Source: a phage
Length of the DNA: 64,000 nucleotides
Sequence record: PZ172995.1
Reading direction: 5' to 3' (one strand)
Under the pieces are notes generated by a model. That model had not been told where the DNA came from, did no database searches, and worked only from the letters and a program-made list of their open reading frames with translations. The translations under genes were made by a program, and so were the position numbers. Shown piece by piece: positions 981 through 62,910 of the stretch (the first letter of the stretch is position 1; every line of letters starts with the position of its first letter).

Positions 981-1191
981 TAGAAGGTTTATACAGAGTG
1001 GCTATTAAGACCACTAGATAGATACTAAGATACTATATAGTACTATATAACTATATAGAGAGTAAGCTTAAGAAGGATGTTAAGAAGGGTAGATATTTTA
1101 TTCACATATGATGGTGACCCAGAGGTTGGAACAACCGATAAAATTTTATAAAAATTAAAAAGCCCCCAATTAAGGAGGCTCTTAAGATATT

Positions 1192-1740
1192 TTAAACCAG
1201 TGTTTCCAGAACTGTCTTCAGTGATGACTTGGTTGTCTGATAAAAATGAGTAAATCCATTGTTGTTATCAAATACCTGCATCATGATATCATCTCCCTTA
1301 ATTGGGTACACTCGGATATCATAGTGAAAACCATTAAAGACACAAGAACCACTACAGAATGCTCTAAAGTCATCTACTGAGATATACTCTTCATGACCTG
1401 TGATTTTTATACAAACACCTTTACTCGGTCTCTTAGGGTTGATATCTTCCATTACAGACATACTCTGTCCACCAAGAGATACCATAGTGACCACTTTACG
1501 GTTCTTCTGTTTAAAGTACATCTTAACTTTCTGCAAAGTGTCTTCATAGAACGGATAAGATTTCTCTACAAAGACTCCTTCAAGTGGGTCTTTACCATTT
1601 TTAACTTCTCTGTAACCCCGTACTGCAAAAACAATCTGTTTTAATCTGTCAAGACTTTCTTCAGAGAGTGCTTCTTGAGCATCACTCCAGTCAAGGACTA
1701 GATAGTTACCTTCAACATCTTTTAAGTTATCTTTTTCCAT
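1192..1740 (-). CDS. hypothetical protein
   Basis: ORF track 1192..1785 begins at a TTG; first ATG at 1740 avoids overlap with the upstream gene. Confidence 0.55.
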   Translation of the reverse strand: MEKDNLKDVEGNYLVLDWSDAQEALSEESLDRLKQIVFAVRGYREVKNGKDPLEGVFVEKSYPFYEDTLQKVKMYFKQKNRKVVTMVSLGGQSMSVMEDINPKRPSKGVCIKITGHEEYISVDDFRAFCSGSCVFNGFHYDIRVYPIKGDDIMMQVFDNNNGFTHFYQTTKSSLKTVLETLV

Positions 1741-8955: not shown

Positions 8956-9098
8956 AGATAATCCTCTTGTCTTCTGTAATTTTGAAAGAACAGGTACAGA
9001 CCAATTTCAGAGGATGAATAGTAGAGTAACTCTACCCTTTTTGATTCCTTACAGTGATTGGTATTTTTACCTTTCTTCGGGTTGTTTGATTTTCTCAT
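8937..9098 (-). CDS. hypothetical small basic protein
   Basis: Track start 9119 not supported; ATG at 9098 has AAGGAG RBS. Confidence 0.5.
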   Translation of the reverse strand: MRKSNNPKKGKNTNHCKESKRVELLYYSSSEIGLYLFFQNYRRQEDYLCVVPN

Positions 9099-9192
9099 TA
9101 AGTCTCCTTTGTAGAACAAGGCAGACCTACAGCTTTAAGTAAGATGGTACAGTAATCCATACAACAAGTCAAGAACTATTGCAAGTTAAAAA

Positions 9193-9220
9193 AGTTGTTG
9201 ACAAAGTACTTGACAAGGTG
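9193..9220 (+). promoter_or_regulatory. conserved 24-nt element with tandem TTGACAA (GTTGACAAAGTACTTGACAAGGTGT) in the divergent switch region
   Basis: Near-identical copy at 51326-51353 in the other divergent switch region; contains two -35-like hexamers. Confidence 0.55.
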
Positions 9221-9347
9221 TAGGCTTATAAATACTTAGAAGATAACTTAAAAGGTTCCTCTAAAAAGGCTATTTAAACAGATATCTTTCTGGATATCTA
9301 TCTTTTATCTTAAAAGCCTTTTAAGAGGTCTTATAAGAGGCATACCA

Positions 9348-9719
9348 ATGAAAAACAGAACAAACAAAGGCCAGTTTAAAAAAGGCCAGTCTGGAAACCC
9401 ATCTGGAAGACCAAAAGGCTCTCGTAACAAAAGCTCACTCGTAAAAGCTCAACTGACCATTGACAATTCTGCTGAGTTTGCTGCAAAGTTGTTTGAAGCA
9501 ATTGTTACAAGGGACGCTGCTAAGCTTGCAGAGTTCGGGTTAAACACAGATGACGTAACCATCAAGAGCATGATTGAGGTCGGTAAAACTATCTTTACTC
9601 ACTCAGCAGGTGAGATGAAAGCACTTGCAGCAGACACTAAGAAGACTTCTGATAATGGTGGTCAGTCACAGACAGATAACAAACCAACGTTCTCTGCTGT
9701 AGCGACTCTCAAAAAATAA
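9348..9719 (+). CDS. hypothetical protein with basic Gly/Pro-rich N-terminus (KKGQSGNPSGRPKG)
   Basis: ORF with AGAGG RBS; first gene of the rightward block. Confidence 0.65.
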   Translation: MKNRTNKGQFKKGQSGNPSGRPKGSRNKSSLVKAQLTIDNSAEFAAKLFEAIVTRDAAKLAEFGLNTDDVTIKSMIEVGKTIFTHSAGEMKALAADTKKTSDNGGQSQTDNKPTFSAVATLKK

Positions 9720-9731
9720 TTTTAAAAGGTG

Positions 9732-9767
9732 TTGACAGACTCTACAAAGTTGCTCTAAAGTCTGTCA
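9732..9767 (+). promoter_or_regulatory. sigma70-like promoter (TTGACA, 18-nt spacer, TAAAGT) overlapped by a 9-bp inverted repeat
   Basis: TTGACA at 9732-9737; TGACAGACT at 9733-9741 and AGTCTGTCA at 9759-9767. Confidence 0.5.
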
Positions 9768-9800
9768 CATCAAACAACAAATGAGAGAAGAGAGTAAAAT

Positions 9801-11216
9801 ATGAGCGAATTATTTAAACATGCGCACCTTCATGCAGGTCGAACTGAAAATGGTGCTGTAAACCATACTTCATCAATGTCTGCTCTGGTGGACTTTTACA
9901 AAGCCGCTGGCTCAAGCCGTAGCAATGTAGAAATCTTACCAGACCTGTTCTACAAAGCTTTGCGTGAGGATGTTGATGTTGCAGTTCGTATTTTACTGCA
10001 TATGCGAGATGTACGAGAAGGTATGGGTGAGCGTAAAGCTTTCCGAACTGTTTTACTTCAAGCGATTGAAGATAAGGTTTTAGAACCTACACAGGTTCTT
10101 CGCATTATGGATAAGATTGCAGAACTTGGTCGTTTTGATGACTTCAAAATCTTCGTAGGCACTCGTTTTGAGACAGATGCCTTCAAACATTTAGAAGCAG
10201 CATTACTAGACCCTGCAACAGCAGGTTTAGCAGCTAAGTGGTTACCACGAGTAAAACCACGCCACAAACAGTTTGTAAAACGTTTCTGTAAGTTTGCAAA
10301 CTTAAGCGAGAAGGAGTATCGCACACTGTTATCTGCACTGTCTGATACGGTTGAGCAAAAAATCTCTGCTAATGAGTTTGGTAAGATTGACTACAGCAAG
10401 GTTCCTTCACTCGCTGCTGCACGTTACCAAAAACTCTTTAACCGTAAAGATGGGGAACGTTACAAAGCTTACGTTGAGTCACTCTCAAAGGGTGAGGCTA
10501 AGATTAACGCTGGTGCTGTTTACCCATACGATGTGATTAAATCTATCAAGTATGGTAATGCAGATGTGGCTAATGAGCAGTGGAAAGCACTACCAAACTG
10601 GATGGCAGAAGGTGAGAACATCTTGTGTATGACTGATGTTTCAAGTTCAATGTCTTGGGTGAGTCTTGGTTCAATCACTGCCCTTGATGTTGGTGTATCC
10701 CTTGCCTTGTATGTAGCAGAACGCAACACAGGTTGCTTTAAAGATGAGTTAATGGTCTATTCAACAAACCCTCATTTCATTGAACTGAGTGGTGATTTAC
10801 GAAACCGTCATCGTCAGGTAATGCGTCATGTTGAATATGGTTCAACTAACTTACAAGCAGCTTTTGACCGCATTCTTGAAATAGGTAAGAGAAACAACTT
10901 GACTCAGAAAGATATGCCAAGTAAGCTTATTATCTTCTCTGATATGGAGTTTAATCAGGTTGATGGTGCAAATGGTCGTACAAACTTTGAAGCAATTCAG
11001 AGTAAGTACAAAAAAGCTGGATACGAAATGCCACAACTAGTATTCTGGTACTTAGCAAACCGTAATGGTACTTGCGAAGTATCTGTTAAGGATAATGGTG
11101 TAGCAATGGTATCAGGGTTCTCTCCAGCCACTTTAAAAGCTCTGCTTGGTGGTGAGAAGTTTGACCCAATCAGCGTAATGCTCAAAGCAGTAATGATTGA
11201 CCGTTACATCTGGTAA
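9801..11216 (+). CDS. DUF2828-like protein with C-terminal vWA/MIDAS-like motif (possible TROVE/Ro60-like fold)
   Basis: N-terminal RTENGAVNHTSSMSAL motif and DVSSSMS (DxSxS) motif in the 471-aa translation; strong RBS; family assignment from recalled signatures, not a search. Confidence 0.6.
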   Translation: MSELFKHAHLHAGRTENGAVNHTSSMSALVDFYKAAGSSRSNVEILPDLFYKALREDVDVAVRILLHMRDVREGMGERKAFRTVLLQAIEDKVLEPTQVLRIMDKIAELGRFDDFKIFVGTRFETDAFKHLEAALLDPATAGLAAKWLPRVKPRHKQFVKRFCKFANLSEKEYRTLLSALSDTVEQKISANEFGKIDYSKVPSLAAARYQKLFNRKDGERYKAYVESLSKGEAKINAGAVYPYDVIKSIKYGNADVANEQWKALPNWMAEGENILCMTDVSSSMSWVSLGSITALDVGVSLALYVAERNTGCFKDELMVYSTNPHFIELSGDLRNRHRQVMRHVEYGSTNLQAAFDRILEIGKRNNLTQKDMPSKLIIFSDMEFNQVDGANGRTNFEAIQSKYKKAGYEMPQLVFWYLANRNGTCEVSVKDNGVAMVSGFSPATLKALLGGEKFDPISVMLKAVMIDRYIW

Positions 11217-11228
11217 AAAGTTTTAAAA

Positions 11229-11263
11229 AGGGTATTGACAATGTGTTTGATACCCTTTAATAT
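11229..11263 (+). promoter_or_regulatory. sigma70-like promoter (TTGACA, 17 nt, TAATAT) with flanking palindrome, upstream of tRNA array
   Basis: TTGACA 11235-11240, TAATAT 11258-11263; AAGGGTAT / ATACCCTT inverted repeat around the -35. Confidence 0.6.
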
Positions 11264-11324
11264 GTTCTACATAGAAACGAAATGAGAGCTTTTCTAAGAT
11301 ACTGAAAAATATTTTAAAAAGTTC

Positions 11325-11353
11325 TTGACAACCACTAAAAAATAATGTTAAAG
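11325..11353 (+). promoter_or_regulatory. second sigma70-like promoter (TTGACA, 18 nt, TAAAGT) upstream of tRNA array
   Basis: Same -35, spacer and -10 pattern as the promoter at 9732. Confidence 0.5.
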
Positions 11354-11380
11354 TGGTTACATAGAGTTTGAAAAGTTTAT

Positions 11381-11457
11381 CTCTGTTTAGCTCAGCTTGG
11401 TAGAGCGTTCCGTTTGGGGCGGTAAGGCCGGAGGTTCAAGTCCTCCAACAGAGACCA
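11381..11457 (+). tRNA. tRNA-Pro (TGG)
   Basis: Hand-folded cloverleaf: acceptor CTCTGTT/AACAGAG, anticodon loop TTTGGGG, T-arm GGAGG-TTCAAGT-CCTCC, CCA encoded. Confidence 0.75.
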
Positions 11458-11464
11458 AATTAAT

Positions 11465-11542
11465 GTTCCAGTAGACAAAACGGTAAAGTCACCACTCTTT
11501 CAAAGTGGATATTTGAGGGTTCAAATCCCTTCTGGAACGCCA
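11465..11542 (+). tRNA. tRNA-Glu (TTC)
   Basis: Acceptor GTTCCAG/CTGGAAC, anticodon stem CCACT/AGTGG with loop CTTTCAA, T-loop TTCAAAT, CCA encoded. Confidence 0.75.
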
Positions 11543-11547
11543 GTTTT

Positions 11548-11623
11548 GACAGAAGACCAATTACAGCAAACTTAATCTACTCATCTGACACGAAATCGGA
11601 CAAAGAAGATATTTGGTCTGGTC
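11548..11623 (+). ncRNA. conserved hairpin element, copy 1 (basal stem CAGAAGACC / GGTCTGG, loop with CAGCAA)
   Basis: GACAGAAGACCA pairs with TGGTCTGGTC around a loop of about 50 nt; same stem in three further copies. Confidence 0.5.
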
Positions 11624-11632
11624 ATTAAGAAT

Positions 11633-11709
11633 TGCGGGTATAGAGAAAGGGCGTCTCACATGTCTCATTAGCATGGTATCGGCAGGTTCGACTCCTGCAC
11701 CCGCCTCCA
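11633..11709 (+). tRNA. tRNA-Met (CAT), irregular acceptor stem
   Basis: D-stem GAGA/TCTC, anticodon stem CATGT/GCATG with loop CTCATTA, T-arm GCAGG-TTCGACT-CCTGC; acceptor pairing imperfect. Confidence 0.55.
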
Positions 11710-11714
11710 ATTTT

Positions 11715-11778
11715 GCAGAAGACCGTATGCAGCAACAAACTACTTTTTTTGCGGATAAAAGAAAAAACACGGTCTGGC
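11715..11778 (+). ncRNA. conserved hairpin element, copy 2
   Basis: GCAGAAGACCG ... CAGCAA ... CGGTCTGGC. Confidence 0.5.
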
Positions 11779-11788
11779 AATATATTAA

Positions 11789-11865
11789 GGTTAGGAAGCA
11801 CATAAGGTATGTGCGGTCGCCTGTTAAGCGAATGGCACAGGGTTCGAATCCCTGACTAACCGCCA
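11789..11865 (+). tRNA. tRNA-Asn (GTT)
   Basis: D-stem GCAC/GTGC, anticodon loop CTGTTAA, T-arm CAGGG-TTCGAAT-CCCTG, CCA encoded. Confidence 0.7.
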
Positions 11866-11874
11866 AATTTAAAT

Positions 11875-11962
11875 GTGTCGTTATCCCGTAGATGGTAGCG
11901 GTGGGGACTGTAAATCCCTTGTCATTGAGACTCGGTAGGTTCGACTCCTACACGGCACACCA
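11875..11962 (+). tRNA. tRNA-Tyr (GTA), long variable arm
   Basis: Acceptor GTGTCGT/ACGGCAC, anticodon loop CTGTAAA, long variable arm, T-arm GTAGG-TTCGACT-CCTAC, CCA encoded. Confidence 0.7.
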
Positions 11963-11968
11963 AATAAA

Positions 11969-12046
11969 GGTTATGTAGTTTAATCTGGTTAAAATACTCC
12001 CCTGTCACGGGAGATGATGAGGGTTCAAATCCCTTCGTAACCGCCA
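11969..12046 (+). tRNA. tRNA-Asp (GTC)
   Basis: Anticodon stem CTCCC/GGGAG with loop CTGTCAC, T-arm GAGGG-TTCAAAT-CCCTT, CCA encoded. Confidence 0.8.
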
Positions 12047-12129
12047 AATTATAATAAGTATTTCAAAATGATGTTTGAGAGGGCTATTTAGCCCCTCCCT
12101 TAAAGAGTTCTTACGAGTATTCTTTAAAG

Positions 12130-12212
12130 GAGCAGAAGACCAAATTCAGCAAGTACGTATGATATTTTCAAGCCAATTTAATTTTGAAAAAATTTAAAAC
12201 TTGGTCTGGCTC
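12130..12212 (+). ncRNA. conserved hairpin element, copy 3
   Basis: GAGCAGAAGACCAA pairs with TTGGTCTGGCTC; loop contains CAGCAA. Confidence 0.5.
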
Positions 12213-12221
12213 AACAAATTT

Positions 12222-12357
12222 ACAGAAGACCGTTTACAGCAAAACTTAAACAATCTATTTCTCCGGTAAAGAAAAGGCGAAGGTTCGATTCCTTCACTCG
12301 GCAGATGTCGAGTTGGTGTAATGGTAGCACTTAAGATGACAAACAACGGTCTGGTAA
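12222..12357 (+). ncRNA. conserved hairpin element, copy 4, enclosing a tRNA-like module (T-arm hairpin, acceptor-like hairpin, D-arm-like hairpin); candidate Y-RNA-like RNA
   Basis: Basal stem ACAGAAGACCGTT / AACGGTCTGGTA; inside: GAAGG-TTCGATT-CCTTC (12279-12295), ACTCGGC-AGAT-GTCGAGT (12296-12313), GTGT-AATGGTA-GCAC (12316-12330). Confidence 0.45.
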
Positions 12358-12503
12358 TTATCTTTGTAGGTGAGCTATTAAGCTTACTTGTGAGTATGCG
12401 ACCACAAAGGGTGAAAGGGCAAATTCTAGATTTAAACCCAACAAGGCACATCGCTACAGACCTTAAGCAAGTCTGGGTAGCTTATCTACAAAGATAATTT
12501 AAT

Positions 12504-12579
12504 GGAAGTGTAGCAGAATGGTGATGCGGCAGACTTTTAATCTGACAGGCGATGGGTTCGAATCCCTCCACTTCTACCA
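12504..12579 (+). tRNA. tRNA-Lys (TTT)
   Basis: Acceptor GGAAGTG/CACTTCT, anticodon loop CTTTTAA, T-loop TTCGAAT, CCA encoded; paralogous to the Lys(CTT) tRNA at 13820. Confidence 0.7.
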
Positions 12580-12583
12580 ATAT

Positions 12584-12660
12584 GGTTCAGTCGCAGATAA
12601 GGTAATGCAGGGGTCTCATAAGCCCTATGAATGTGGGTTCGATTCCCATCTGAACCTCCA
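12584..12660 (+). tRNA. tRNA with CAT anticodon (Met or lysidine-Ile)
   Basis: Acceptor GGTTCAG/CTGAACC, anticodon loop CTCATAA, T-arm GTGGG-TTCGATT-CCCAT, CCA encoded. Confidence 0.7.
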
Positions 12661-12661
12661 A

Positions 12662-12737
12662 GCTGGTATAGTTAAGAAGGTTATAACACTCCCCTGATAA
12701 GGGAATATCGGTGGTTCGATTCCACCTACCAGTACCA
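12662..12737 (+). tRNA. tRNA-Ile (GAT)
   Basis: D-stem GTTA/TAAC, anticodon loop CTGATAA, T-arm GGTGG-TTCGATT-CCACC, CCA encoded. Confidence 0.75.
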
Positions 12738-12752
12738 ATTTCAATAAAGTTG

Positions 12753-12781
12753 TTGACATTGATATGTGACTATTTTATAGT
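12753..12781 (+). promoter_or_regulatory. sigma70-like promoter (TTGACA, 17 nt, TATAGT) inside the tRNA array
   Basis: TTGACA 12753-12758, TATAGT 12776-12781; downstream about 300 nt has no tRNA or ORF. Confidence 0.55.
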
Positions 12782-12832
12782 AACTGAAAATGATTCAGCA
12801 TATGTATAATTCAAACACCAATACATGAGCGT

Positions 12833-12904
12833 TAGACGTAACACAATGTGGGGAAATTTGTTGTACATATTCTGAATAGTTTTCGTTGCGTAGCGTCTAT
12901 TTTG
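12833..12904 (+). terminator. putative structured element ending in a T-run (possible sRNA 3' end)
   Basis: TAGACG ... CGTCTA stem enclosing about 55 nt, followed by TTTTGC. Confidence 0.3.
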
Positions 12905-13074
12905 CAAATTTAAAATAAATGCAAACGACAATGTTTTTCTGGCAGTAGCTTGATAGGCTAAACACCAGTGAGGTCTTCCAATCCCTCATCAAAGAATTTG
13001 GCGTACTAGCCCACGGTATGATTAATAAGGTGGGCATCTTTAAGGGCTTTCTAAGAGAGTCTTTAAAGATTAAT

Positions 13075-13151
13075 GCACCCTTAGTTCAATTGGATAGAGC
13101 AACGGTCTTCTAAATCGTTAGTTACAGGTTCGAATCCTGTAGGGTGTGCCA
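13075..13151 (+). tRNA. tRNA-Arg (TCT)
   Basis: Acceptor GCACCCT/AGGGTGT, anticodon loop CTTCTAA, T-arm ACAGG-TTCGAAT-CCTGT, CCA encoded. Confidence 0.75.
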
Positions 13152-13293
13152 AATAGTTAGCAGATTGCTTAGACGACCTTATCGGGTCTCCGCGTAAGGA
13201 GGTGGTCTGTATCTCATGTTTTCCAGAACATGTAAATAATCTGAGAAGGGGCTTTACAGTGTTGCGAAAATACGGTAAGCTTCGAATTATAGT

Positions 13294-13376
13294 GTGGGAC
13301 GATGTTAAGACTCTAAGGCATGAGCAACGGCCTCCAAAACCGTTTCAAAGGGGTTCAACTCCTCCGTCCCATGCCA
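13294..13376 (+). tRNA. tRNA-Trp (CCA)-like, atypical length and D-region
   Basis: Acceptor GTGGGAC/GTCCCAT, anticodon loop CTCCAAA, T-loop TTCAACT, CCA encoded; about 7 nt longer than canonical. Confidence 0.45.
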
Positions 13377-13389
13377 AAGTCTTATTAGG

Positions 13390-13477
13390 GGTAGGTAGCG
13401 GCTAATGGCAGCCAAACAGTCTTGAAAACTGTTGCAACTGTAGAGATACGGTGAGGGTTCGACTCCTTTACTTACCA
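13390..13477 (+). tRNA. tRNA-Ser (TGA), long variable arm
   Basis: Acceptor GGTAGGT/ACTTACC, anticodon stem ACAGT/ACTGT with loop CTTGAAA, variable arm about 20 nt, T-loop TTCGACT. Confidence 0.7.
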
Positions 13478-13634
13478 CCTAATAAGATTTTACACCGTCC
13501 ATGCTTGCTCGCATTTTCGGTTTATCCCTCGTGTATTGTCGTACACACTGATAAAGCACCTAGTAGGTGTCACGGAGAAGAGATAATATCAAGCTCTCCA
13601 AAGGTTCTAGTCACCGGATTAAACAAGACTATGC

Positions 13635-13656
13635 AAAGACCAATTTAGGTCTTTTT
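13635..13656 (+). terminator. putative Rho-independent terminator
   Basis: AAAGACC-AATTTA-GGTCTTT followed by TTT. Confidence 0.45.
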
Positions 13657-13735
13657 AGAGGGCTTCTAAGGTTATTACAGCTTGTTGTGGAACCTTGTTG
13701 CTTAGGTTCTTAGAAGTTCTCTAAAAAGATTTAAT

Positions 13736-13812
13736 GCACCTATAGCCCAACTGGTAGAGGCAGCAGACTTAGAATCTGCTCAGTGTGAGTTCGAATCTCT
13801 CTAGGTGTACCA
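13736..13812 (+). tRNA. tRNA with TAG anticodon (Leu by anticodon), short variable arm
   Basis: Acceptor GCACCTA/TAGGTGT, anticodon stem GCAGA/TCTGC with loop CTTAGAA, T-loop TTCGAAT, A73, CCA encoded. Confidence 0.65.
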
Positions 13813-13819
13813 AATTAAT

Positions 13820-13895
13820 GCAGGTGTAGCAAAATGGTTATGCGGCTGACTCTTAATCAGTAAGACGATGGGTTCAATTCCCTCCACCTGTACCA
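13820..13895 (+). tRNA. tRNA-Lys (CTT)
   Basis: Acceptor GCAGGTG/CACCTGT, anticodon loop CTCTTAA, T-loop TTCAATT, CCA encoded. Confidence 0.7.
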
Positions 13896-13901
13896 AACAT
13901 T

Positions 13902-13977
13902 GGGGTCATAGTTTATATGGTTAAAATTCGAGTTTTGCAAACTTGGGAACTGAGTTCAATTCTCAGTGACTCCACCA
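13902..13977 (+). tRNA. tRNA-Ala (TGC)
   Basis: Acceptor GGGGTCA/TGACTCC, anticodon loop TTTGCAA, T-arm CTGAG-TTCAATT-CTCAG, CCA encoded. Confidence 0.7.
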
Positions 13978-13983
13978 ATTAGT

Positions 13984-14058
13984 GCATCCATAGTTTAAAC
14001 GGGAAAATTACAGTCTTCCAAACTGAGGTTGAGGGTTCGATTCCCTCTGGATGCTCCA
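13984..14058 (+). tRNA. tRNA-Gly (TCC)
   Basis: Acceptor GCATCCA/TGGATGC, anticodon loop CTTCCAA, T-loop TTCGATT, CCA encoded. Confidence 0.75.
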
Positions 14059-14065
14059 AATTAAT

Positions 14066-14141
14066 GCTCCTATCGTATAATTGGCTATTACGGTTGCCTT
14101 GTAAGTAACTTATCAGGGTTCGAATCCTTGTGGGAGCACCA
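14066..14141 (+). tRNA. tRNA-Thr (TGT)
   Basis: Acceptor GCTCCTA/TGGGAGC, anticodon loop CTTGTAA, T-arm CAGGG-TTCGAAT-CCTTG, CCA encoded. Confidence 0.7.
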
Positions 14142-14238
14142 ATTTAGAGGTCAAGTGAAAGACCGCTTTGAGTCAACTGAAGACCGTAACAAATCCCACG
14201 GAGTTGAGTTAGCGGCACAACTTCAGACCTCTTTCCAC

Positions 14239-14313
14239 ACTCGCTTAGTTTATATGGTAAAACATCACCCTTACAAGATGAAGAAAAAGGTTCAAGTCCT
14301 TTAGTGAGTACCA
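14239..14313 (+). tRNA. tRNA-Val (TAC)
   Basis: D-stem GTTT/AAAC, anticodon loop CTTACAA, T-arm AAAGG-TTCAAGT-CCTTT, CCA encoded. Confidence 0.7.
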
Positions 14314-14314
14314 T

Positions 14315-14392
14315 GTTCCAGTATCCCAATTGGCAGAGGATGCAAGCTCAAACCTTGCACTAGTGACGGTTCGAATCCGTCTTGGAACACCA
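14315..14392 (+). tRNA. tRNA with CAA anticodon (Leu by anticodon), short variable arm
   Basis: Acceptor GTTCCAG/TTGGAAC, anticodon stem GCAAG/CTTGC with loop CTCAAAC, T-arm GACGG-TTCGAAT-CCGTC, A73, CCA encoded. Confidence 0.65.
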
Positions 14393-14397
14393 ATTTT

Positions 14398-14473
14398 GCA
14401 GGATTAGTTCAAATGGATAGAGCAACAGTCTACGAAGCTGTTAATAGGGGTTCGAGTCCCTTATCCTGCGCCA
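14398..14473 (+). tRNA. tRNA-Arg (ACG)
   Basis: Acceptor GCAGGAT/ATCCTGC, anticodon loop CTACGAA, T-loop TTCGAGT, CCA encoded. Confidence 0.75.
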
Positions 14474-14491
14474 GATAAGTAAGAGTGATTT

Positions 14492-14734
14492 ATGCAAACA
14501 TTAATCGTCGTTGAACATGAAAATTCCAATAGCATTGAGTTTGTAAGGGTTCCCACTATAGATACCCACATTTTCTTGAAAGTAGGCTGGGAATGTGACC
14601 CAATAAGAGTAGAAAAATTTATTGGTCATTACTTTGGTGGAAGACAACTTAAAAGTGTTAATTTTGAGACAATGTTACCAGAAAACTCAGAAACAAATAA
14701 TAATGTTTACCTCCTTACAAGGATTAGACAATGA
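14492..14734 (+). CDS. hypothetical protein encoded inside the tRNA array
   Basis: ORF with RBS; ATGA overlap with the next gene. Confidence 0.5.
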   Translation: MQTLIVVEHENSNSIEFVRVPTIDTHIFLKVGWECDPIRVEKFIGHYFGGRQLKSVNFETMLPENSETNNNVYLLTRIRQ

Positions 14735-15288
14735 GATATTTGAAGTATGTTTCATGGATTTTCTTAGCTTTGCTAGAGCCATTTGCAGCAATCTTAGCAG
14801 TCATCTTAGCACCTTTTGTAGTTCTATTCTACAGTGAGAAGAGAGGACACTTACCTTTCGGCTTCAGATGGATGGAAACATATGATAACCCAATTGATGG
14901 TGATAAAGGTCATGTCGAACGATGGGCTAAGATTAGAAAGATTGGTAAGCTTGGTATCTATATGCAGAGAGTTGGTTGGCTCTGGAGAAACAAAGCTTAT
15001 AACTTCTCTTACCATGTGTTAGGAAGAGATGTAAAAGATGTTACTAAGTGGAAAGGTAATATCAATGTAAGTTCTAACCCTGAAGATAATCAGACAGGTT
15101 ATCTCCTAATGTGGAACAGTAATGCTTGGGGATTATTCGCTTTTATCCCATCAATTAAACTCTTTGGTAAGCAATTCTACTGGAGAATTTATGTTGGATG
15201 GAAACTTAAAAGTGTTGTTCCAAAAGAAAGAGCATTCTCAAGGGAAAGAGTTATGTTGGCATTCTTTATTCATCCACTGAGAAAGTAA
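14731..15288 (+). CDS. hypothetical Trp-rich membrane protein encoded inside the tRNA array
   Basis: N-terminal hydrophobic helix WIFLALLEPFAAILAVILAPFVVLF in the 185-aa translation. Confidence 0.6.
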   Translation: MRYLKYVSWIFLALLEPFAAILAVILAPFVVLFYSEKRGHLPFGFRWMETYDNPIDGDKGHVERWAKIRKIGKLGIYMQRVGWLWRNKAYNFSYHVLGRDVKDVTKWKGNINVSSNPEDNQTGYLLMWNSNAWGLFAFIPSIKLFGKQFYWRIYVGWKLKSVVPKERAFSRERVMLAFFIHPLRK

Positions 15289-15296
15289 AGATTTAA

Positions 15297-15372
15297 AGGG
15301 GATTAGTTTACAAGGTTAAAACCTCGGTCTTTGAAATCGAAGAAGTTGGTTCAATTCCAACATCCCCCGCCA
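15297..15372 (+). tRNA. tRNA-Gln (TTG)
   Basis: Anticodon stem TCGGT/ATCGA with loop CTTTGAA, T-arm GTTGG-TTCAATT-CCAAC, CCA encoded. Confidence 0.7.
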
Positions 15373-15374
15373 AT

Positions 15375-15453
15375 GCTCCATTACTCCAATTGGCAGAGAG
15401 GCCAGACTTAAAATCTGTGTTATGTATCGGTTCGAATCCGATATGGAGTACCA
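15375..15453 (+). tRNA. tRNA with TAA anticodon (Leu by anticodon), short variable arm
   Basis: Acceptor GCTCCAT/ATGGAGT, anticodon loop CTTAAAA, T-arm ATCGG-TTCGAAT-CCGAT, A73, CCA encoded. Confidence 0.65.
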
Positions 15454-15458
15454 AATTT

Positions 15459-15534
15459 AGCGGTATAGCATAACTGGCAATGCAGCAGTCTCTGAAGCTG
15501 TCTTATTAAGGTTCAAATCCTTATGCCGCTGCCA
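15459..15534 (+). tRNA. tRNA-Gln (CTG)
   Basis: D-stem GCAT/ATGC, anticodon loop CTCTGAA, T-arm TAAGG-TTCAAAT-CCTTA, CCA encoded. Confidence 0.7.
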
Positions 15535-15565
15535 CTTCTAAGGATTCTTACGAGAGTCCTTAAAT

Positions 15566-15641
15566 GTGGCCTTATCATAAATGGTAATGACCCATGCTGT
15601 GAACATGGTCTATACGGGTTCAAATCCCGTAGGTCACCCCA
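15566..15641 (+). tRNA. tRNA-His (GTG)
   Basis: D-stem TCAT/ATGA, anticodon stem CCATG/CATGG with loop CTGTGAA, T-arm ACGGG-TTCAAAT-CCCGT, CCA encoded. Confidence 0.75.
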
Positions 15642-15646
15642 ATTTA

Positions 15647-15723
15647 TAGTCCAAGTAGCTTATATGGTTAAAGCGCGTGTCTGAAAAACATGAGAAGAGG
15701 GTTCAAATCCCACTGGACTACCA
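15647..15723 (+). tRNA. tRNA-Phe (GAA)
   Basis: Acceptor TAGTCCA/TGGACTA, anticodon stem CGTGT/ACATG with loop CTGAAAA, T-loop TTCAAAT; linker lengths slightly irregular. Confidence 0.65.
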
Positions 15724-15739
15724 ATTTCAAAGGTGCTTA

Positions 15740-16474
15740 ATGAAAGAGATGACAGGACAAGGTAAGGAGATTTTTAATCTCTTAAAAACCGGTAGAGGGT
15801 TTTCTAATCCCCTTATTACTGGTGCAGCAGTTCTCGGTGGAACCGTAGCTGCCTCTACATCACTTGTAAGCTCTATTAGCTCTGTAACAGACCCTACAAT
15901 AAAGGATAAACTTGTTGCCGCTGGACTTACAACAGTTCTGCTTAACAGCTTTACAACGAGTCTGACAAGCACTACATCCACCACTAAGACATTGACAGAT
16001 TACGGTCAAAAATCAATTGATGAGTTTTCATCACGTATGCAGGTAGCAAAAGGATATTCCAATGTTATGGGTGCAGCAGGAGAGCAAGTTGGTTGTACAC
16101 CATTTAGTGGTATTATGGGTGTTGCTACAGAATATGGTCAAAAAGCTATTGACACGATTAACAACACGTTAGACAGTGTTAACGGCGTGTTAAGTGACTT
16201 ACAGGATGCTATTGATAAAGGTCTTGATACTGTTTCTGATTTAGCTAACCAAGCTGTTAGCAAGATTAATGAAGGTATCTCGAAGATTACAGCTTATGCA
16301 GATGAAGTTGTGCAGATGATTGAAGAAGAAGCTGCCCTTATTGCAGAGTACCTTAAAACGAATATCAATGGGTTCTTAGCAGGTATTTTACCAGACTGGT
16401 TTGATGATGCTTGTAAAACTGGTGTGATTGACACTATTGCAACACCAGAAATGAAGAACGCATTACAGAAATAA
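15740..16474 (+). CDS. hypothetical Ser/Thr-rich protein encoded inside the tRNA array
   Basis: Track start 15677 lies inside tRNA-Phe; ATG at 15740 has AAAGGTG RBS; low-complexity S/T region then a helical C-terminal half. Confidence 0.6.
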   Translation: MKEMTGQGKEIFNLLKTGRGFSNPLITGAAVLGGTVAASTSLVSSISSVTDPTIKDKLVAAGLTTVLLNSFTTSLTSTTSTTKTLTDYGQKSIDEFSSRMQVAKGYSNVMGAAGEQVGCTPFSGIMGVATEYGQKAIDTINNTLDSVNGVLSDLQDAIDKGLDTVSDLANQAVSKINEGISKITAYADEVVQMIEEEAALIAEYLKTNINGFLAGILPDWFDDACKTGVIDTIATPEMKNALQK

Positions 16475-16475
16475 T

Positions 16476-16568
16476 GGAAGATTAACCCTAAAAGGTAAGG
16501 GAGCAGTTTGCTAAACTGCCAGTAGCTGAGAAATCGGTGTACCAGTTCAAGTCTGGTATCTTCCCCCA
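16476..16568 (+). tRNA. tRNA-Ser (GCT), long variable arm
   Basis: Acceptor GGAAGAT/ATCTTCC, anticodon stem GCAGT/ACTGC with loop TTGCTAA, variable arm about 21 nt, T-arm ACCAG-TTCAAGT-CTGGT, CCA encoded. Confidence 0.75.
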
Positions 16569-16572
16569 ATTT

Positions 16573-16648
16573 GAATCCGTGACAGAAATGGCTATGTGCC
16601 TGTCTGCAAAACAGGTTTATAAGGGTTCGAGTCCCTTCGGATTCTCCA
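16573..16648 (+). tRNA. tRNA-Cys (GCA)
   Basis: Acceptor GAATCCG/CGGATTC, anticodon stem CCTGT/ACAGG with loop CTGCAAA, T-arm AAGGG-TTCGAGT-CCCTT, CCA encoded. Confidence 0.8.
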
Positions 16649-16685
16649 AGTTATTTTACTCTCTCTCAATTAAAATAATAATAAT

Positions 16686-16746
16686 GCCCTGCTATAAGTA
16701 TTCTTCCTTTCGCTACCGAAGAGTATTTTTAGACAGGGCTTTTTTA
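16686..16746 (+). terminator. putative terminator (long imperfect hairpin plus T-run) after the tRNA array
   Basis: GCCCTG ... CAGGGC followed by TTTTTT. Confidence 0.45.
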
Positions 16747-16810
16747 CAGAGTTATACTTTATAAGAAGGCTTATACAGTATGTCTCTGACGTACATTGTG
16801 GTTTCTCCTT

Positions 16811-16834
16811 GACGGTCTCTGTACCGTCTTTTTT
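16811..16834 (+). terminator. Rho-independent terminator after the tRNA array
   Basis: GACGGT-CTCTGT-ACCGTC followed by TTTTTT. Confidence 0.75.
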
Positions 16835-16870
16835 AAGGGGAAACATGGTTAATTATTTGGAGAAAACATA

Positions 16871-17071
16871 ATGAGTGAGACCGTTTATAAAGAACTTTAT
16901 GAAGCTAACAAAAAGCTAGAATTTATGCAGAACACTATCATGGCAATTGCAGATAGATTGTCTGTAGCAACAGGTATTGATATCAAAGAAGCCTCTATGG
17001 ATACACTTCTTGATGCTGTTGATGCAAAGTTCGAAGTTAAGAAAGAAGAGACTGCTACAGACTCTGAATAA
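16871..17071 (+). CDS. hypothetical small acidic protein immediately upstream of the large terminase
   Basis: ORF with GGAGAAA RBS; position would fit a small terminase partner but sequence is uninformative. Confidence 0.5.
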   Translation: MSETVYKELYEANKKLEFMQNTIMAIADRLSVATGIDIKEASMDTLLDAVDAKFEVKKEETATDSE

Positions 17072-17092
17072 TTCTATTTGCGGAGGTGCTTA

Positions 17093-18694
17093 ATGGACTT
17101 AAATGCTGTTAAGCAGAAGCGAGTGGAAGATGTTAGGAAAGTCCTAGCTGGAGAGTTGGGGCTTTCTGATGAAGTAAAAGAAATTATCAAATCATTCGGT
17201 AAAGACCCCTCTAAATTCCTTCCAACTCAAATTCTGACTTTATTAAGATACACACCAGACCAAGTTAGACTTATCTTCAAATTGATGACTGATAAGAACT
17301 ATGTAGCCCCTCAGCCGGGTTCTCAAGAGGTGTTTTTAAATACTAATGCTGACTTGGTTTTATATGGTGGTGCTGCTGGTGCTGGTAAAACTGCTGCATT
17401 GTTAATGGACTCTTTAAGGTTTATTGAAGACCCTAACTATAATGCTGTATATTTCCGTCGAAATACAACACAGTTACAAGGTGGTTTATGGCCTGCTGCA
17501 AAGAAACTATTTGGTAAGTTTGGTGGGGTTCCGCACGAGCAGAAGATGACTATCACATTCCCTTCTGGGGCAACTATCAAGTTCACCTACCTAGAACTTG
17601 AAAAGCACGCTGAAGGTCATCAGGGTATTGAATACTCAGCTATCTATTTTGACGAAGGTACACACTTCTCTGCTTCACAGATTTCATACCTACAGACCCG
17701 TCTACGTTCTGGTGCTGAAGGTGACTCATACATGAAGATTTCTATGAACCCAGATAGAGACCACTTCATTTATGATTGGGTAGAACCATTCTTAGATGAA
17801 GAAGGTTACCCAGACCCTGAGAAGTGCGGTCGTATTCGTTGGTATGTTATGAATGATGGTGTGATGGTTTCTGATTGGGAGAGAGACAAGATTCTTGAAA
17901 TGTTCCCTCTTGAGATTCCTCAGACATACACCTTCATCTCTGGTACGATTGATGATAACCCAATTCTTGACTTCTTAGAACCTAAATATCGTGGTAAGTT
18001 GGAAAACAACACACCTGTAAACGTTGCAAGACTTCGTTTCGGTAACTGGAAGGCTCGTGCAGAAGGTTCAAACTATTGGCAAAGACAATGGTGTGAGATT
18101 GTTGATTCACTCCCAGAAGATGTGTTTGATGTCAGAGCATGGGACTTAGCAGCAACTTTACCATCTGAGATTAACCCTAATCCAGACTGGACAGCAGGTG
18201 TTAAGATGGGTAAATCTAAAAAAGACGGTTGCTATTATATCATTGATGTAGTAAGATTTAGAGATAGACCCTCTGGAGTCGAAACACAAATTAATTTGAC
18301 TGCTGAAAGTGACGGTAAGCGAACTGGTATTTTTATCCCTCAAGACCCAGGCGCTGCTGGTAAATCCTATGCAACATCCCTCATCAGGAAACTTGCCGAG
18401 AAAGGTTATCGCGCAAGAGCTAAACCAACAAATAAAGATAAAGTTACCCGCTTTGCGGGATTTTCTGCTGCTTCTGAAGCTGGACTTGTAAAAGTCTTGA
18501 GAGGAAGTTGGAACGAAGCTTATTTCCAAGAACTTGAAGGTTTTTGTGGTGATGGCAAAACTAAAGATGACCAAGTGGATGCTACCAGTGATGCTTTCAA
18601 CAGTCTTAACGAAGTTAAATTATTCAAGCCACCATCAATGGGTGCTCACACAGACTTAGTGAGAGGAAACCCATACGAGGGGCTTAGACGTTGA
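17093..18694 (+). CDS. terminase large subunit
   Basis: Walker A GGAAGAGKT and Walker B IYFDEGTH in the translation; C-terminal nuclease-like domain; ATG at 17093 with GGAGGTG RBS (track start 17078 is TTG). Confidence 0.9.
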   Translation: MDLNAVKQKRVEDVRKVLAGELGLSDEVKEIIKSFGKDPSKFLPTQILTLLRYTPDQVRLIFKLMTDKNYVAPQPGSQEVFLNTNADLVLYGGAAGAGKTAALLMDSLRFIEDPNYNAVYFRRNTTQLQGGLWPAAKKLFGKFGGVPHEQKMTITFPSGATIKFTYLELEKHAEGHQGIEYSAIYFDEGTHFSASQISYLQTRLRSGAEGDSYMKISMNPDRDHFIYDWVEPFLDEEGYPDPEKCGRIRWYVMNDGVMVSDWERDKILEMFPLEIPQTYTFISGTIDDNPILDFLEPKYRGKLENNTPVNVARLRFGNWKARAEGSNYWQRQWCEIVDSLPEDVFDVRAWDLAATLPSEINPNPDWTAGVKMGKSKKDGCYYIIDVVRFRDRPSGVETQINLTAESDGKRTGIFIPQDPGAAGKSYATSLIRKLAEKGYRARAKPTNKDKVTRFAGFSAASEAGLVKVLRGSWNEAYFQELEGFCGDGKTKDDQVDATSDAFNSLNEVKLFKPPSMGAHTDLVRGNPYEGLRR

Positions 18695-62597: not shown

Positions 62598-62610
62598 TTT
62601 TAATAACTAT

Positions 62611-62630
62611 GAGGGTCGTAAAAGACCCTC
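62611..62630 (+). terminator. hairpin between nrdA and the downstream small ORF (possible attenuator)
   Basis: GAGGGTC-GTAAAA-GACCCTC with weak T-tail. Confidence 0.35.
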
Positions 62631-62652
62631 TAAAATTAACTTTGGAGAAACT

Positions 62653-62910
62653 ATGAAAGACTTAATAGCAAATCACGAGTGGCCCATATACTTGCTCCAC
62701 AAACCTCGGAAAACGATGTACTATGTGAGTAGCACAGACATGATGATAAAACAAAATGATGACTCATGGGTCGCTGGTGTCTCTTACATCTCTACAGCAG
62801 ATGGTAAAATCTATGCAAGACCTTATGACATGTTTAACAAAGAAAATTGGGAAGTTTTAGACAGAAAACAAGCCTTAGAGATGATAAAGAAAGGAGAAAT
62901 CACACTATGA
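62653..62910 (+). CDS. hypothetical small protein between nrdA and nrdB
   Basis: ATG at 62653 with GGAGAAA RBS; stop overlaps nrdB start (ATGA). Confidence 0.5.
   Translation: MKDLIANHEWPIYLLHKPRKTMYYVSSTDMMIKQNDDSWVAGVSYISTADGKIYARPYDMFNKENWEVLDRKQALEMIKKGEITL

Follow-up and report, generated by a model that had tools for sequence, protein, structure and literature searches.

The DNA analysed here, referred to as the window, is a stretch of 64,000 nucleotides of phage record PZ172995.1. The phage is a Felixounavirus (Felix O1-like phage) with 98.5% identity to Escherichia phage JN01. On its plus strand, ARAGORN predicts 26 tRNA genes between positions 11381 and 16648, 23 of which are confirmed by Rfam. 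As an earlier note on this DNA had described, three ORFs, here called A, B and C, interrupt the tRNA array; they lie at the positions listed in Table 1, on the tRNA strand, and are intact in relatives. Nucleotide matches to the region are present in 278 phage records, and 208 of these cover at least 80% of it. A gene encoding a Ro60-like protein is located directly 5' of the array; an Rfam scan of the array for Y RNAs and other families near this gene returned tRNAs only.

Table 1. Features of the tRNA/ORF region, with positions in the window.
Feature	Position	Strand	Remarks
sigma-70-like promoter, TTGACA-18-TAAAGT with TG	11325..11354	+	just 5' of the first tRNA; consensus match
sigma-70 promoter, TTGACA-17-TATAGT, 11/12	12753..12781	+	within the array; near-consensus
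tRNA-Arg(ACG), encoded CCA	14398..14473	+	directly 5' of ORF A; presence varies among relatives
leader, 18 nt, GATAAGTAAGAGTGATTT	14474..14491	+	weak Shine-Dalgarno for ORF A
ORF A, 80 aa	14492..14734	+	soluble; phrog_14202 is the sole family; accessory; ATGA overlap with ORF B
ORF B, 185 aa	14731..15288	+	Pfam DUF7338 / phrog_2143; Felix O1 ORF48
tRNA-Gln(TTG)	15297..15372	+	begins 8 nt past the ORF B stop codon
tRNA-Phe(GAA)	15648..15723	+	contains the spurious GTG start (15677) of ORF C
leader, 16 nt, ATTTCAAAGGTGCTTA	15724..15739	+	AAGGTG Shine-Dalgarno for ORF C
ORF C, 244 aa	15740..16474	+	Pfam DUF7217 / phrog_2114; Felix O1 ORF49
tRNA-Ser(GCT) and tRNA-Cys(GCA)	16476..16648	+	final two tRNAs of the array; tRNA-Ser 1 nt past the ORF C stop
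intrinsic terminator	16686..16739 plus U-run (to 16745)	+	20-pair interrupted hairpin and UUUUUU

ORFs A, B and C are real genes under purifying selection, not chance ORFs: the median pairwise dN/dS is 0.24 for A, 0.067 for B and 0.091 for C, and all three remain intact across 10-20 relatives. Most of what the earlier note had read from the letters is borne out. ORF A (80 aa) ends in a TGA that shares the letters ATGA (14731-14734) with the start codon of ORF B, and the 185-aa product of B is indeed Trp-rich (10 Trp) with an N-terminal TM helix (residues 2-33); the 244-aa product of C is Ser/Thr-rich (20% Ser+Thr) and all-helical in its model (pLDDT 66). The start that the ORF track assigns to C, GTG 15677, does fall inside tRNA-Phe and is spurious; the real start is ATG 15740, which is preceded by an AAGGTG Shine-Dalgarno and gives a protein that aligns with homologues of 244-253 aa, with M1 invariant in 13 out of 13. 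The assertion that none of the proteins carries a recognisable motif did not survive a profile search: B matches Pfam DUF7338 (PF24027) over residues 1-184 with 206.3 bits against a gathering cut-off of 27, and C matches DUF7217 (PF23854) over residues 8-243 with 296.1 bits against a cut-off of 29. PF24027 is present in all 36 database homologues of B.

The three genes are already annotated in phages of the Felix O1 type. B and C correspond to ORF48 and ORF49 of Felix O1, agp134 and agp133 of SUSP1, and 0153 and 0159 of Bas63; these orthologues, together with wV8 genes 52-54 and Mushroom gp87 ('holin'), are the same genes at the same array positions. Amino-acid identity to the Felix O1-type orthologues is 92-100% for B and 84-99% for C, with no material difference between them, save that the window additionally has ORF A, an optional gene that Felix O1, Mushroom, Bas63 and SUSP1 do not possess. 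All three ORFs match PHROG families of unknown function. A literature search for DUF7338 and DUF7217 returned no papers, and the Bas63 cryo-EM paper does not mention 0153 or 0159. A-C are not new, and their importance is small at present: hundreds of Felix O1-like genomes already have them annotated, and Pfam lists them as DUFs. They are probably ordinary Felix O1-type genes that have the tRNA-array transcription unit in common and do not act on tRNAs.

ORFs A-C share a strand with the tRNAs and lie in one unit bounded by sigma-70-like promoters and a single strong terminator, which makes co-transcription, as the earlier note had supposed, plausible. The site at 11325-11354 is a candidate start of this unit, judged from its match to the consensus; in total, the region has no excess of sigma-70-like sites over shuffled sequence. 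Felix O1 promoter P45, TTGACA(17)TATAGT, lies at the homologous position to the site at 12753-12781 and has the same hexamers and spacing (Whichard 2010, PMC3185647). Folding of the terminator yields -25.4 kcal/mol (z = -5.97; 0/200 shuffles fold as well), and it closes the unit ahead of a 66-aa ORF and the terminase gene. Transcripts of ORF48 and ORF49 were detected by RT-PCR in Felix O1, with a maximum at 5 min (PMC3185647 Table 3).

The packing of tRNAs and ORFs is extremely tight. The gaps between them measure 18, 8, 16 and 1 nt, made up of 16-18-nt leaders with Shine-Dalgarno sequences and 1-8-nt trailers, and with spacers this small the ORF mRNAs are probably cut out by tRNA processing. 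The array and the ORFs would be transcribed as one precursor, from which two short mRNAs, one for A-B and one for C, would be freed by RNase P cleaving at the tRNA that follows and by 3' maturation of the tRNA that precedes; to judge by the spacing, the ends of both may be set by these two processing events, much as in tRNA-punctuated transcripts. Known cases of protein genes co-transcribed with tRNAs are the E. coli thrU-tyrU-glyT-thrT-tufB operon, the tRNA region of T4, which also holds small ORFs, and mitochondria, for which the 'tRNA punctuation' model was formulated. The window resembles these systems in that its ORFs lie on the tRNA strand, in one promoter-to-terminator unit, with spacers of 1-18 nt, so short that the ends of the mRNAs would be those left by tRNA processing. 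Unlike in mitochondria, each window ORF retains its own Shine-Dalgarno leader, and punctuation is here a putative reading of the geometry. Genomes without ORF A have a different 18-19-nt leader, aatttaaagaggctattta, which links the upstream tRNA straight to ORF B, and the ORF B leader is conserved irrespective of the preceding tRNA. Such packing offers a simple system to probe tRNA-punctuated mRNA maturation in a phage.

Conservation of placement, which the earlier note had put forward as a check, differs among the three genes. Within the genus, B and C are invariably present, and all Felixounavirus, Suspvirus and Mooglevirus loci that were examined have them in the same position; A is patchy, occurring in 70 GenBank phage records as compared with the 278 that match the region (about a quarter) and in 10/22 Felix-like IMG/VR loci. 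Absence from close relatives, which that note regarded as counting against these genes, is thus found for A and not, within the genus, for B or C. ORF A is a fast-evolving, genus-restricted add-on that is translationally coupled to B.

ORF B has a far wider distribution. Its homologues are found in 583 phage records, and those of Ounavirinae and T4-like phages are 55-60% identical. Among non-Felix loci with at least 55% identity to B, 24/25 have a same-strand tRNA no more than 1.1 kb upstream, and B lies between tRNAs in Avunavirus Av-05, in the loci L031 and L103, and in Krischvirus-like and S13-like loci; its occurrence in tRNA arrays extends over three unrelated phage lineages, Ounavirinae, Vequintavirinae and Straboviridae. 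In L031 and Av-05, nucleotide homology ends at the B ORF boundaries (within 8 nt) and the flanking tRNAs differ. ORF B behaves as a self-contained cassette that is placed between differing tRNA pairs across phage lineages. A second habitat is seen in tRNA-less contigs of temperate-type phages, where B lies within a lysis cassette or adjoins one, and canonical holin candidates are already present there: a Phage_holin_2 gene directly precedes the B homologue in two contigs (L099, L102), and a 2-TMD 75-aa ORF lies next to it in a third (L096). Erwinia phage M7, a member of the sister genus Kolesnikvirus in the same subfamily, has no B anywhere in its genome.

The recurrence of B in or near the tRNA arrays of three lineages speaks for the kind of role that the earlier note had in mind, in which A-C have tRNAs or translation as their target (through processing, modification or protection from anticodon nucleases) or serve as tRNA-island anti-defence genes. 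Phage tRNAs are known from the literature to counter tRNA-targeting defences, and the Bas63 homologue of the Ro60-like gene directly upstream of the array has been put forward as an anti-defence factor. Against such a role, B homologues below 45% identity have nearby tRNAs in 1/37 loci, and several sit in lysis cassettes; the Ackermannviridae homologues of C are far from tRNAs; A is dispensable in most relatives; and B has its conserved domain, by prediction, outside the cytoplasm. Searches of Pfam, NCBIfam, PADLOC and, by sequence, the PDB returned no significant RNA-binding, nuclease, transferase, catalytic, defence or anti-defence match for A-C, nor any other significant PDB match. In NCBIfam and PADLOC there were zero matches for A or B, and those for C amounted to weak coiled-coil noise (ZorA, MCE). 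Foldseek against BFVD retrieved uncharacterised relatives only, one ORF C match being an early TrEMBL fragment from Felix O1 that bears the name 'Red protein'. Although co-transcription with the tRNAs stands as plausible, a function directed at tRNAs, translation or defence is very improbable.

Could the placement be a by-product of gene flow, with no functional or regulatory meaning? In such a case, the array would be a recombination or homing hot spot in which B and A are hitch-hikers, and C would be embedded just because two tRNAs moved to its 3' side; both parts of this proposal are quite conceivable, if short of probable. T4 endonuclease SegB promotes preferential inheritance of the T4 tRNA region. 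Three HNH endonuclease genes (ORF44, 45 and 47) lie within the corresponding array of Felix O1, and they resemble A-C in being protein-coding insertions between tRNAs that are variably present. The array of the window, by contrast, has no endonuclease gene in its ORF list, A, B and C have neither an HNH or GIY-YIG motif nor a Pfam match of these types, and B and C are fixed in the genus. Movement of individual pieces is evident: tRNA-Arg(ACG) and ORF A are gained and lost as discrete units, the homology of B stops at the ORF borders while its neighbours vary by lineage, and in M7, where the ORF C homologue comes between the last tRNA and the terminase gene, tRNA-Ser(GCT) lies 5' of C rather than 3' as here. 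On the other hand, the very close spacing is conserved and B carries its leader along with it, which suggests an adaptation of expression to the tRNA context. Gene flow is compatible with the explanation favoured here, that of ordinary Felix O1-type genes sharing the tRNA transcription unit, and does not exclude it.

The protein encoded by ORF B has a single N-terminal TM helix followed by a basic, Trp-rich alpha+beta domain (Trp content 5.4%, pI 10.1, net charge +16). In its model (pLDDT 91.7), further helices and a sheet of 5 strands come after the hydrophobic helix; the PDB holds no example of the fold of this domain. Sixteen residues are invariant, mainly aromatic or polar, including D52 and a W83-W85-R86-N87 motif. 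In three divergent members, positive charge is greater on the N-flank of the helix than on the C-flank, a distribution that predicts N-in, C-out and would place the domain in the periplasm. B is thus predicted to be an inner-membrane protein with a conserved basic, Trp-rich periplasmic domain of ~150 aa. The topology is read from flanking charges only, and a net charge of +16 is unusual for a periplasmic domain.

In the SUSP1 CRISPRi-ART screen, the ORF B homologue was classed as 'Semi-Fit', the same class as T4 t, and T4 imm was 'Fit'. The SUSP1 assignment is based on 3 guides with p = 0.087; the guides begin 3-6 nt past tRNA-Arg and so may disturb tRNA maturation rather than B translation.

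The presence of B in lysis cassettes of temperate-type contigs as well as in tRNA arrays points to an envelope or lysis role. ORF B may be an accessory cell-envelope factor acting in lysis control or superinfection exclusion, a reading to which we give a little less than an even chance and which we rank above B being the holin itself. T4 Imm and Sp and the superinfection-exclusion proteins of the HK97 gp15 type are envelope morons. ORF B is like them a small accessory membrane/periplasmic protein, patchy and horizontally transferred; it occupies moron-type sites (the end of a lysis cassette, a position after tail-fibre genes, a hyperplastic tRNA region), and the fitness effect of its homologue comes from a high-multiplicity-of-infection screen. 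It differs in having no homology to these morons, and its exclusion role is putative. The idea that B replaces T4 Imm or Sp was considered and rejected: phage VR20 has imm and B together, so there is no clean complementarity.

The holin proposal has a history. The Mushroom genome paper described the ORF B orthologue as 'a class-III holin (1 TMD; N-in, C-out)', a name since copied to other records. If B were the holin that Felix O1-type phages are missing, it would be a class-III-like protein with one TM helix and a large periplasmic domain, and would accumulate in the inner membrane and trigger holes through which soluble endolysin is released. Later papers report Felix O1 and SUSP1 to be without an identifiable holin, the SUSP1 CRISPRi-ART authors call Ounavirinae host lysis 'a mystery', and no other holin is recognised in the window, where a comparison of the TM-bearing ORFs with PHROGs gave no holin match. 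The predicted topology (single TMD, N-in/C-out, large C-terminal periplasmic domain) fits class III, the lysis cassettes of temperate-type contigs contain B homologues, and the SUSP1 homologue shares the Semi-Fit class of T4 t in the same screen. B also resembles T4 holin T in its single N-terminal TM helix, predicted orientation, large extracytoplasmic domain and a gene located apart from the endolysin gene.

B also differs from T. The cytoplasmic N-terminus of ORF B is far shorter (~7 aa), its transcription context is of the early type, and canonical holins are found alongside it elsewhere, namely Phage_holin_2 and the 2-TMD ORF mentioned above; the T4-like phages that bear B homologues also have holin t. 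The same subfamily includes M7, whose whole genome is without B. Judged across the family, rather than in the window phage, B is not the sole hole-former, as it stands beside other holin genes or candidates and M7 lacks it. The sigma-70-like promoters of its unit and the 5-min transcript maximum in Felix O1 are not in keeping with late timing. The part of B outside the membrane shows strong conservation and includes residues, both polar and aromatic, that never vary; it resembles a specific binding or catalytic site and not a holin. [quoted passage not shown] A broader proposal is less likely again: DUF7338 would be a new lysis/envelope-control family, possibly including the missing Felix O1-type holin or its partner, which travels as a mobile cassette favouring tRNA arrays and whose mRNA would be excised and timed through processing of the tRNAs. 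Doubt about the holin label bears on how Ounavirinae lyse their hosts, and the dual habitat of DUF7338, in tRNA arrays of large virulent phages and lysis cassettes of temperate-type phages, together with the SUSP1 fitness effect, makes the family a tractable candidate envelope/lysis factor.

ORF C differs from B in where its relatives are found. The family is conserved in Ounavirinae and Ackermannviridae, and it adjoins tRNAs only in the former; the Ackermannviridae homologues have no tRNA within 5 kb. The contact of ORF C with tRNAs is positional only. The protein is acidic (pI 4.5) and aligns, full-length and colinear, with an 'unknown structural protein' (25.08 kDa) of Dickeya phage JA15 at 27% identity (E = 2e-27). 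The JA15 protein corresponds to LIMEstone1 ORF129 (25.03 kDa), of which mass spectrometry of virions recovered 2 peptides (18% coverage); plainly non-structural proteins are also among those listed for LIMEstone1 virions, though at one peptide each. The LIMEstone1 and JA15 proteins are like ORF C in size, acidity and two conserved cysteines, but their gene has the major capsid gene on one side and the gp3 gene on the other, tRNAs being absent from the vicinity, and virion association has been seen for the LIMEstone1 homologue only.

Within the Felix O1 group, Table S1 of the VpaE1 virion proteome does not flag the ORF C homologue as structural, no PDB chain is homologous to ORF C, although near-identical Felixounavirus capsid structures have been deposited, and the SUSP1 homologue was 'Not Fit' (no fitness effect on knockdown). 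The favoured reading of ORF C, though at less than even chances, is a dispensable, low-copy protein that is associated with the virion or related to its assembly. Two other identities were considered and set aside. A missing small terminase is contradicted by the Ackermannviridae homologues, which are not beside terminase genes, by LIMEstone1, which has its own small terminase, and by the Not Fit class in SUSP1; a DNA-mimic anti-restriction protein finds no support in a content of acidic residues of just 11%.

For Felix O1, a 'Gp49' band of 51 kDa was reported, as against 25.6 kDa predicted for ORF49 (PMC3185647); the mismatch may be a numbering error. In M7, the annotated start of the ORF C homologue, gp013, overlaps tRNA-Ser, the same mis-annotation as that of ORF C in the window.

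The region 14300-16700 of the window is 98.5% identical by nucleotide comparison to Escherichia phage JN01 and matches 278 phage records, 208 of them at ≥80% coverage, almost all from Felixounavirus-type myophages with Escherichia, Salmonella, Shigella or Citrobacter hosts. The Felixounavirus assignment agrees with the gene surroundings, a 26-tRNA array and, after it, a 66-aa ORF and the terminase and portal genes. The three protein genes within the array, ORFs A, B and C, all lie where an earlier note, made from the sequence alone, had described them. The ORF A stop and the ORF B start share an ATGA overlap; ORF B has 10 tryptophans (5.4%), a pI of 10.1, a net charge of +16 and a single N-terminal hydrophobic helix, and ORF C (Ser+Thr 20%, pI 4.5) is all-helical by prediction. 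The mechanical start of ORF C, GTG 15677, does fall within tRNA-Phe, as the note had observed; an AAGGTG Shine-Dalgarno sequence and an M1 invariant in 13/13 aligned homologues of 244-253 aa indicate that ATG 15740 is the true start. Erwinia phage M7, as annotated in RefSeq, shows an equal start-within-tRNA artefact. Comparative evidence marks all three ORFs as genuine genes, since ORF A is intact in 10/10 and ORFs B and C in 20/20 genomes compared, with median pairwise dN/dS values over the same sets of 0.24 (A), 0.067 (B) and 0.091 (C). The note was mistaken in seeing no recognisable motif in any of them: ORFs B and C match Pfam families with scores well over threshold, and each of the three belongs to a PHROG family of unknown function.

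Features of the tRNA array and its surroundings
Feature	Coordinates	Strand	Remarks
DUF5681 gene	9348-9719	+	123 aa
Ro60/TROVE-like gene	9801-11216	+	471 aa; directly upstream of tRNA array
sigma-70-like promoter	11325-11354	+	consensus match, ahead of first tRNA
tRNA array	11381-16648	+	26 tRNAs
non-coding gaps in array	12047-12503, 12738-13074, 13152-13389, 13480-13735		
sigma-70-like promoter	12753-12781	+	consensus match, within tRNA array
ORF A	14492-14734	+	80 aa
ORF B	14731-15288	+	185 aa; Pfam DUF7338
ORF C	15740-16474	+	244 aa; Pfam DUF7217
intrinsic terminator, strong	16686-16745	+	hairpin 16686-16739 plus U-run; after last tRNA
intrinsic terminator, weaker	16811-16834		second terminator
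66-aa ORF			3' of tRNA array, before large terminase gene
large terminase gene	17078-18694		portal gene next

Between the tRNA/ORF unit and the two genes that follow, the 66-aa ORF and the large terminase gene, stands the strong terminator, whose hairpin (-25.4 kcal/mol, z = -5.97, about -6) is matched in stability by 0/200 shuffles. The promoter-like site within the array shares its hexamers and spacing with 'P45' of Felix O1; the number of sigma-70-like consensus matches does not exceed shuffled expectation. ORF A begins 18 nt after the CCA of tRNA-Arg, tRNA-Gln follows the ORF B stop by 8 nt, the ORF C start codon lies 16 nt from tRNA-Phe, and 1 nt separates the ORF C stop from tRNA-Ser. 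A single precursor would be transcribed across tRNAs and ORFs, and tRNA end-processing would free one A-B mRNA and one C mRNA. Such mRNAs would resemble the products of the E. coli tRNA-tufB operon and of mitochondrial tRNA punctuation, established precedents for tRNA-processed transcripts.

ORFs B and C correspond to ORF48 and ORF49 in Felix O1, gp87 and gp86 in Mushroom, agp134 and agp133 in the close relative SUSP1, and 0153 and 0159 in Bas63. The tRNA clusters and their intervening genes were already described in the Felix O1 genome paper, in which RT-PCR revealed ORF48 and ORF49 transcripts with a maximum at 5 min post-infection (Whichard 2010; PMC3185647). ORF A was not found in any of these four phages; it is present in 10/22 Felix-like IMG/VR loci and 70 GenBank phage records, with no occurrence found beyond the Felixounavirus-type group, a distribution that points to an optional gene. 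In loci without ORF A, an 18-19-nt leader, aatttaaagaggctattta, connects the upstream tRNA (Arg-ACG, or Leu-CAA if Arg-ACG is absent too) straight to ORF B. Absence from close relatives, a possibility raised in the earlier note, is thus seen for ORF A only; ORFs B and C keep their position within the genus. The 147-kb GenBank record GU169904.1, 'Staphylococcus phage SA1', holds at its positions 60841-63350 a segment 95% identical to the tRNA/ORF region of the window, and is probably chimeric or contaminated.

The DUF7338 family of ORF B is present in 583 phage records. Homologues occur in Felixounavirus, in many T4-like genera (55-60% identity), in Avunavirus Av-05 (79%) and, at lower identity, in jumbo and other phages; the high identity across unrelated phage families implies that the gene moved by horizontal transfer. 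Among non-Felixounavirus loci with ≥55% identity, 24/25 have a same-strand tRNA ≤1.1 kb upstream, and in several the gene sits between tRNAs: Gly - B - Gln in Av-05, Asp - 27 nt - B - 11 nt - Ser and Asp - B - Pro in two other phage loci (L031 and L103), Phe - 69 nt - B - ~300 nt - Met in Krischvirus-like loci, and likewise in S13-like loci. Nucleotide homology stops ≤8 nt from the ORF borders and the adjoining tRNAs differ, so that, by alignment, ORF B behaves as a cassette. The sole exception to the tRNA association is the 121-kb IMG/VR contig L041, with 85% identity in the best segment and no tRNA ≤10 kb. Among distant homologues, a tRNA is nearby in 1/37 loci, and those with nameable neighbours are located in lysis cassettes. 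Two lambdoid-type contigs (L099, L102) have the order holin_2 - lysozyme - DUF2570 - LysC - DUF7338 - two small ORFs, with LysA next in L102 only; two contigs that carry baseplate genes of Mu type (L096, L097) have tail fibre - one ORF - DUF7338 - 96-aa ORF - GH108 endolysin - further ORFs - Rz-like spanin. In phage STP4-a, the homologue lies between tRNAs and the endolysin gene e.

The holin label inherited by ORF B stems from the Mushroom announcement, which assigned a 'class-III holin, 1 TMD, N-in, C-out' by topology; the same centre later stated, for Meda, another phage of Felix O1 type, that 'a holin was not identified', and the authors of the SUSP1 CRISPRi-ART study described Felix O1 as lacking an identifiable holin. 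The topology of ORF B is consistent with a class III holin and no other holin candidate was recognised within the window, but neither sequence nor fold links it to any holin family, and canonical holin candidates adjoin ORF B homologues. In T4-like phages these homologues co-occur with t. Further, Erwinia phage M7, from the same subfamily, has no ORF B anywhere in its complete genome, promoter context and the Felix O1 RT-PCR suggest early timing, and the conserved, ligand-site-like extracytoplasmic domain predicted for ORF B is unlike a holin. In SUSP1 the homologue falls in the Semi-Fit class (score 1.24, p = 0.087, 3 guides), shared with T4 t, yet its guides begin just 3-6 nt past tRNA-Arg and could disturb tRNA maturation; moreover, T4 imm is 'Fit' in the same CRISPRi-ART screen, making the score equally compatible with an exclusion-type protein. 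We consider ORF B unlikely to be a holin proper, and give just short of an even chance to an accessory factor at the envelope, acting in lysis control or superinfection exclusion.

In SUSP1 (NC_028808), agp135 (88136-88348) and agp137 (85762-85935) both overlap tRNA genes (compare loci L012/L018); given this overlap, the Semi-Fit score of agp137, and possibly of agp134 too, may reflect interference with tRNA maturation, not protein loss. In Erwinia phage M7 (NC_041978; L107, region 1068-1462, minus strand), the RefSeq 'holin' gp004 (77 aa) is without a hydrophobic segment; the neighbouring gp005 (54 aa), near the endolysin gene gp007, has two and is thus the likelier holin of the pair. No homologue of either is present within the window.

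ORF C homologues are found in 582 phage records from Ounavirinae and Ackermannviridae. ORF C counts as embedded in the window solely by virtue of tRNA-Ser(GCT) and tRNA-Cys on its 3' side; in Erwinia phage M7, the last tRNA, Ser-GCT, is followed by C, small ORFs and the terminase gene, with no tRNA 3' of C, and in Ackermannviridae the homologue lies between the major capsid and gp3 genes, with no tRNA ≤5 kb. The Dickeya phage JA15 homologue (25.08 kDa) aligns with ORF C along its entire length at 27% identity (E = 2e-27) and corresponds to LIMEstone1 ORF129 (25.03 kDa), which was listed as an 'unknown structural protein' and was identified in virions by 2 peptides (18% coverage), evidence in favour of virion association. 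Other observations speak against a firm structural role. VpaE1 ORF47 was left 'hypothetical' in a table marking other proteins structural, SUSP1 agp133 is Not Fit, and no PDB chain resembles ORF C, even though the PDB does contain Felixounavirus capsid structures that are near-identical (9ncf, 9c2d). In Felix O1, the gel band named 'Gp49', for which a sheath protein was considered (PMC3185647), ran at 51 kDa, inconsistent with a 25.6-kDa product. The terminator between ORF C and the terminase gene places ORF C in the tRNA unit, not the late operon. Our tentative reading, given somewhat less than an even chance, is that ORF C makes a helical protein of low copy number which the phage can dispense with and which is associated with virions or takes part in assembly; it may instead have an unrelated early accessory role. 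UniProt O80222, an early 150-aa TrEMBL fragment from Felix O1 that matches ORF C at 94% identity, bears the name 'Red protein', whose origin and meaning were not found in the literature searched.

Co-transcription with the tRNAs, proposed in the earlier note, is plausible; the suggested roles in tRNA processing, translation or anti-defence drew no support, with no such match for ORFs A-C in Pfam, NCBIfam, PADLOC and PDB searches, and homologue contexts point elsewhere. ORFs A-C, real but ordinary, are conserved genes without a known function that had been annotated before and that share a transcription unit with phage tRNAs. Beyond existing annotation, the analysis adds the dual habitat of DUF7338 in tRNA arrays and lysis cassettes, its cassette-like behaviour and the weakness of its holin label.

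The gene directly upstream of the array combines DUF2828, DUF7788 and VWA; the Bas63 preprint proposes that its homologue, gp130, counters Ppl defence and perhaps binds Y-RNA-like 'tRNAs'. Rfam, scanned permissively over 9000-17200, returned tRNAs only and no Y RNA. The DUF5681 protein has no known function; its SUSP1 homologue, agp130, is among the top 'Fit' genes in CRISPRi-ART, and one may speculate that it is a candidate for the small terminase subunit, none having been recognised in Felix O1-type phages. Felix O1 has three HNH endonucleases in its corresponding array (PMC3185647), and such genes fill parts of the stretch equivalent to the one that contains the non-coding gaps here. Within one of the gaps, 12877-13005 matches Erwinia phage M7 (L090, 4738-4866) with 80% identity over 131 nt and overlaps a sub-threshold tmRNA-like Rfam match at 12885-13074 (15 bits vs a gathering score of 47); this segment may represent a decayed tRNA or else a conserved non-coding RNA.
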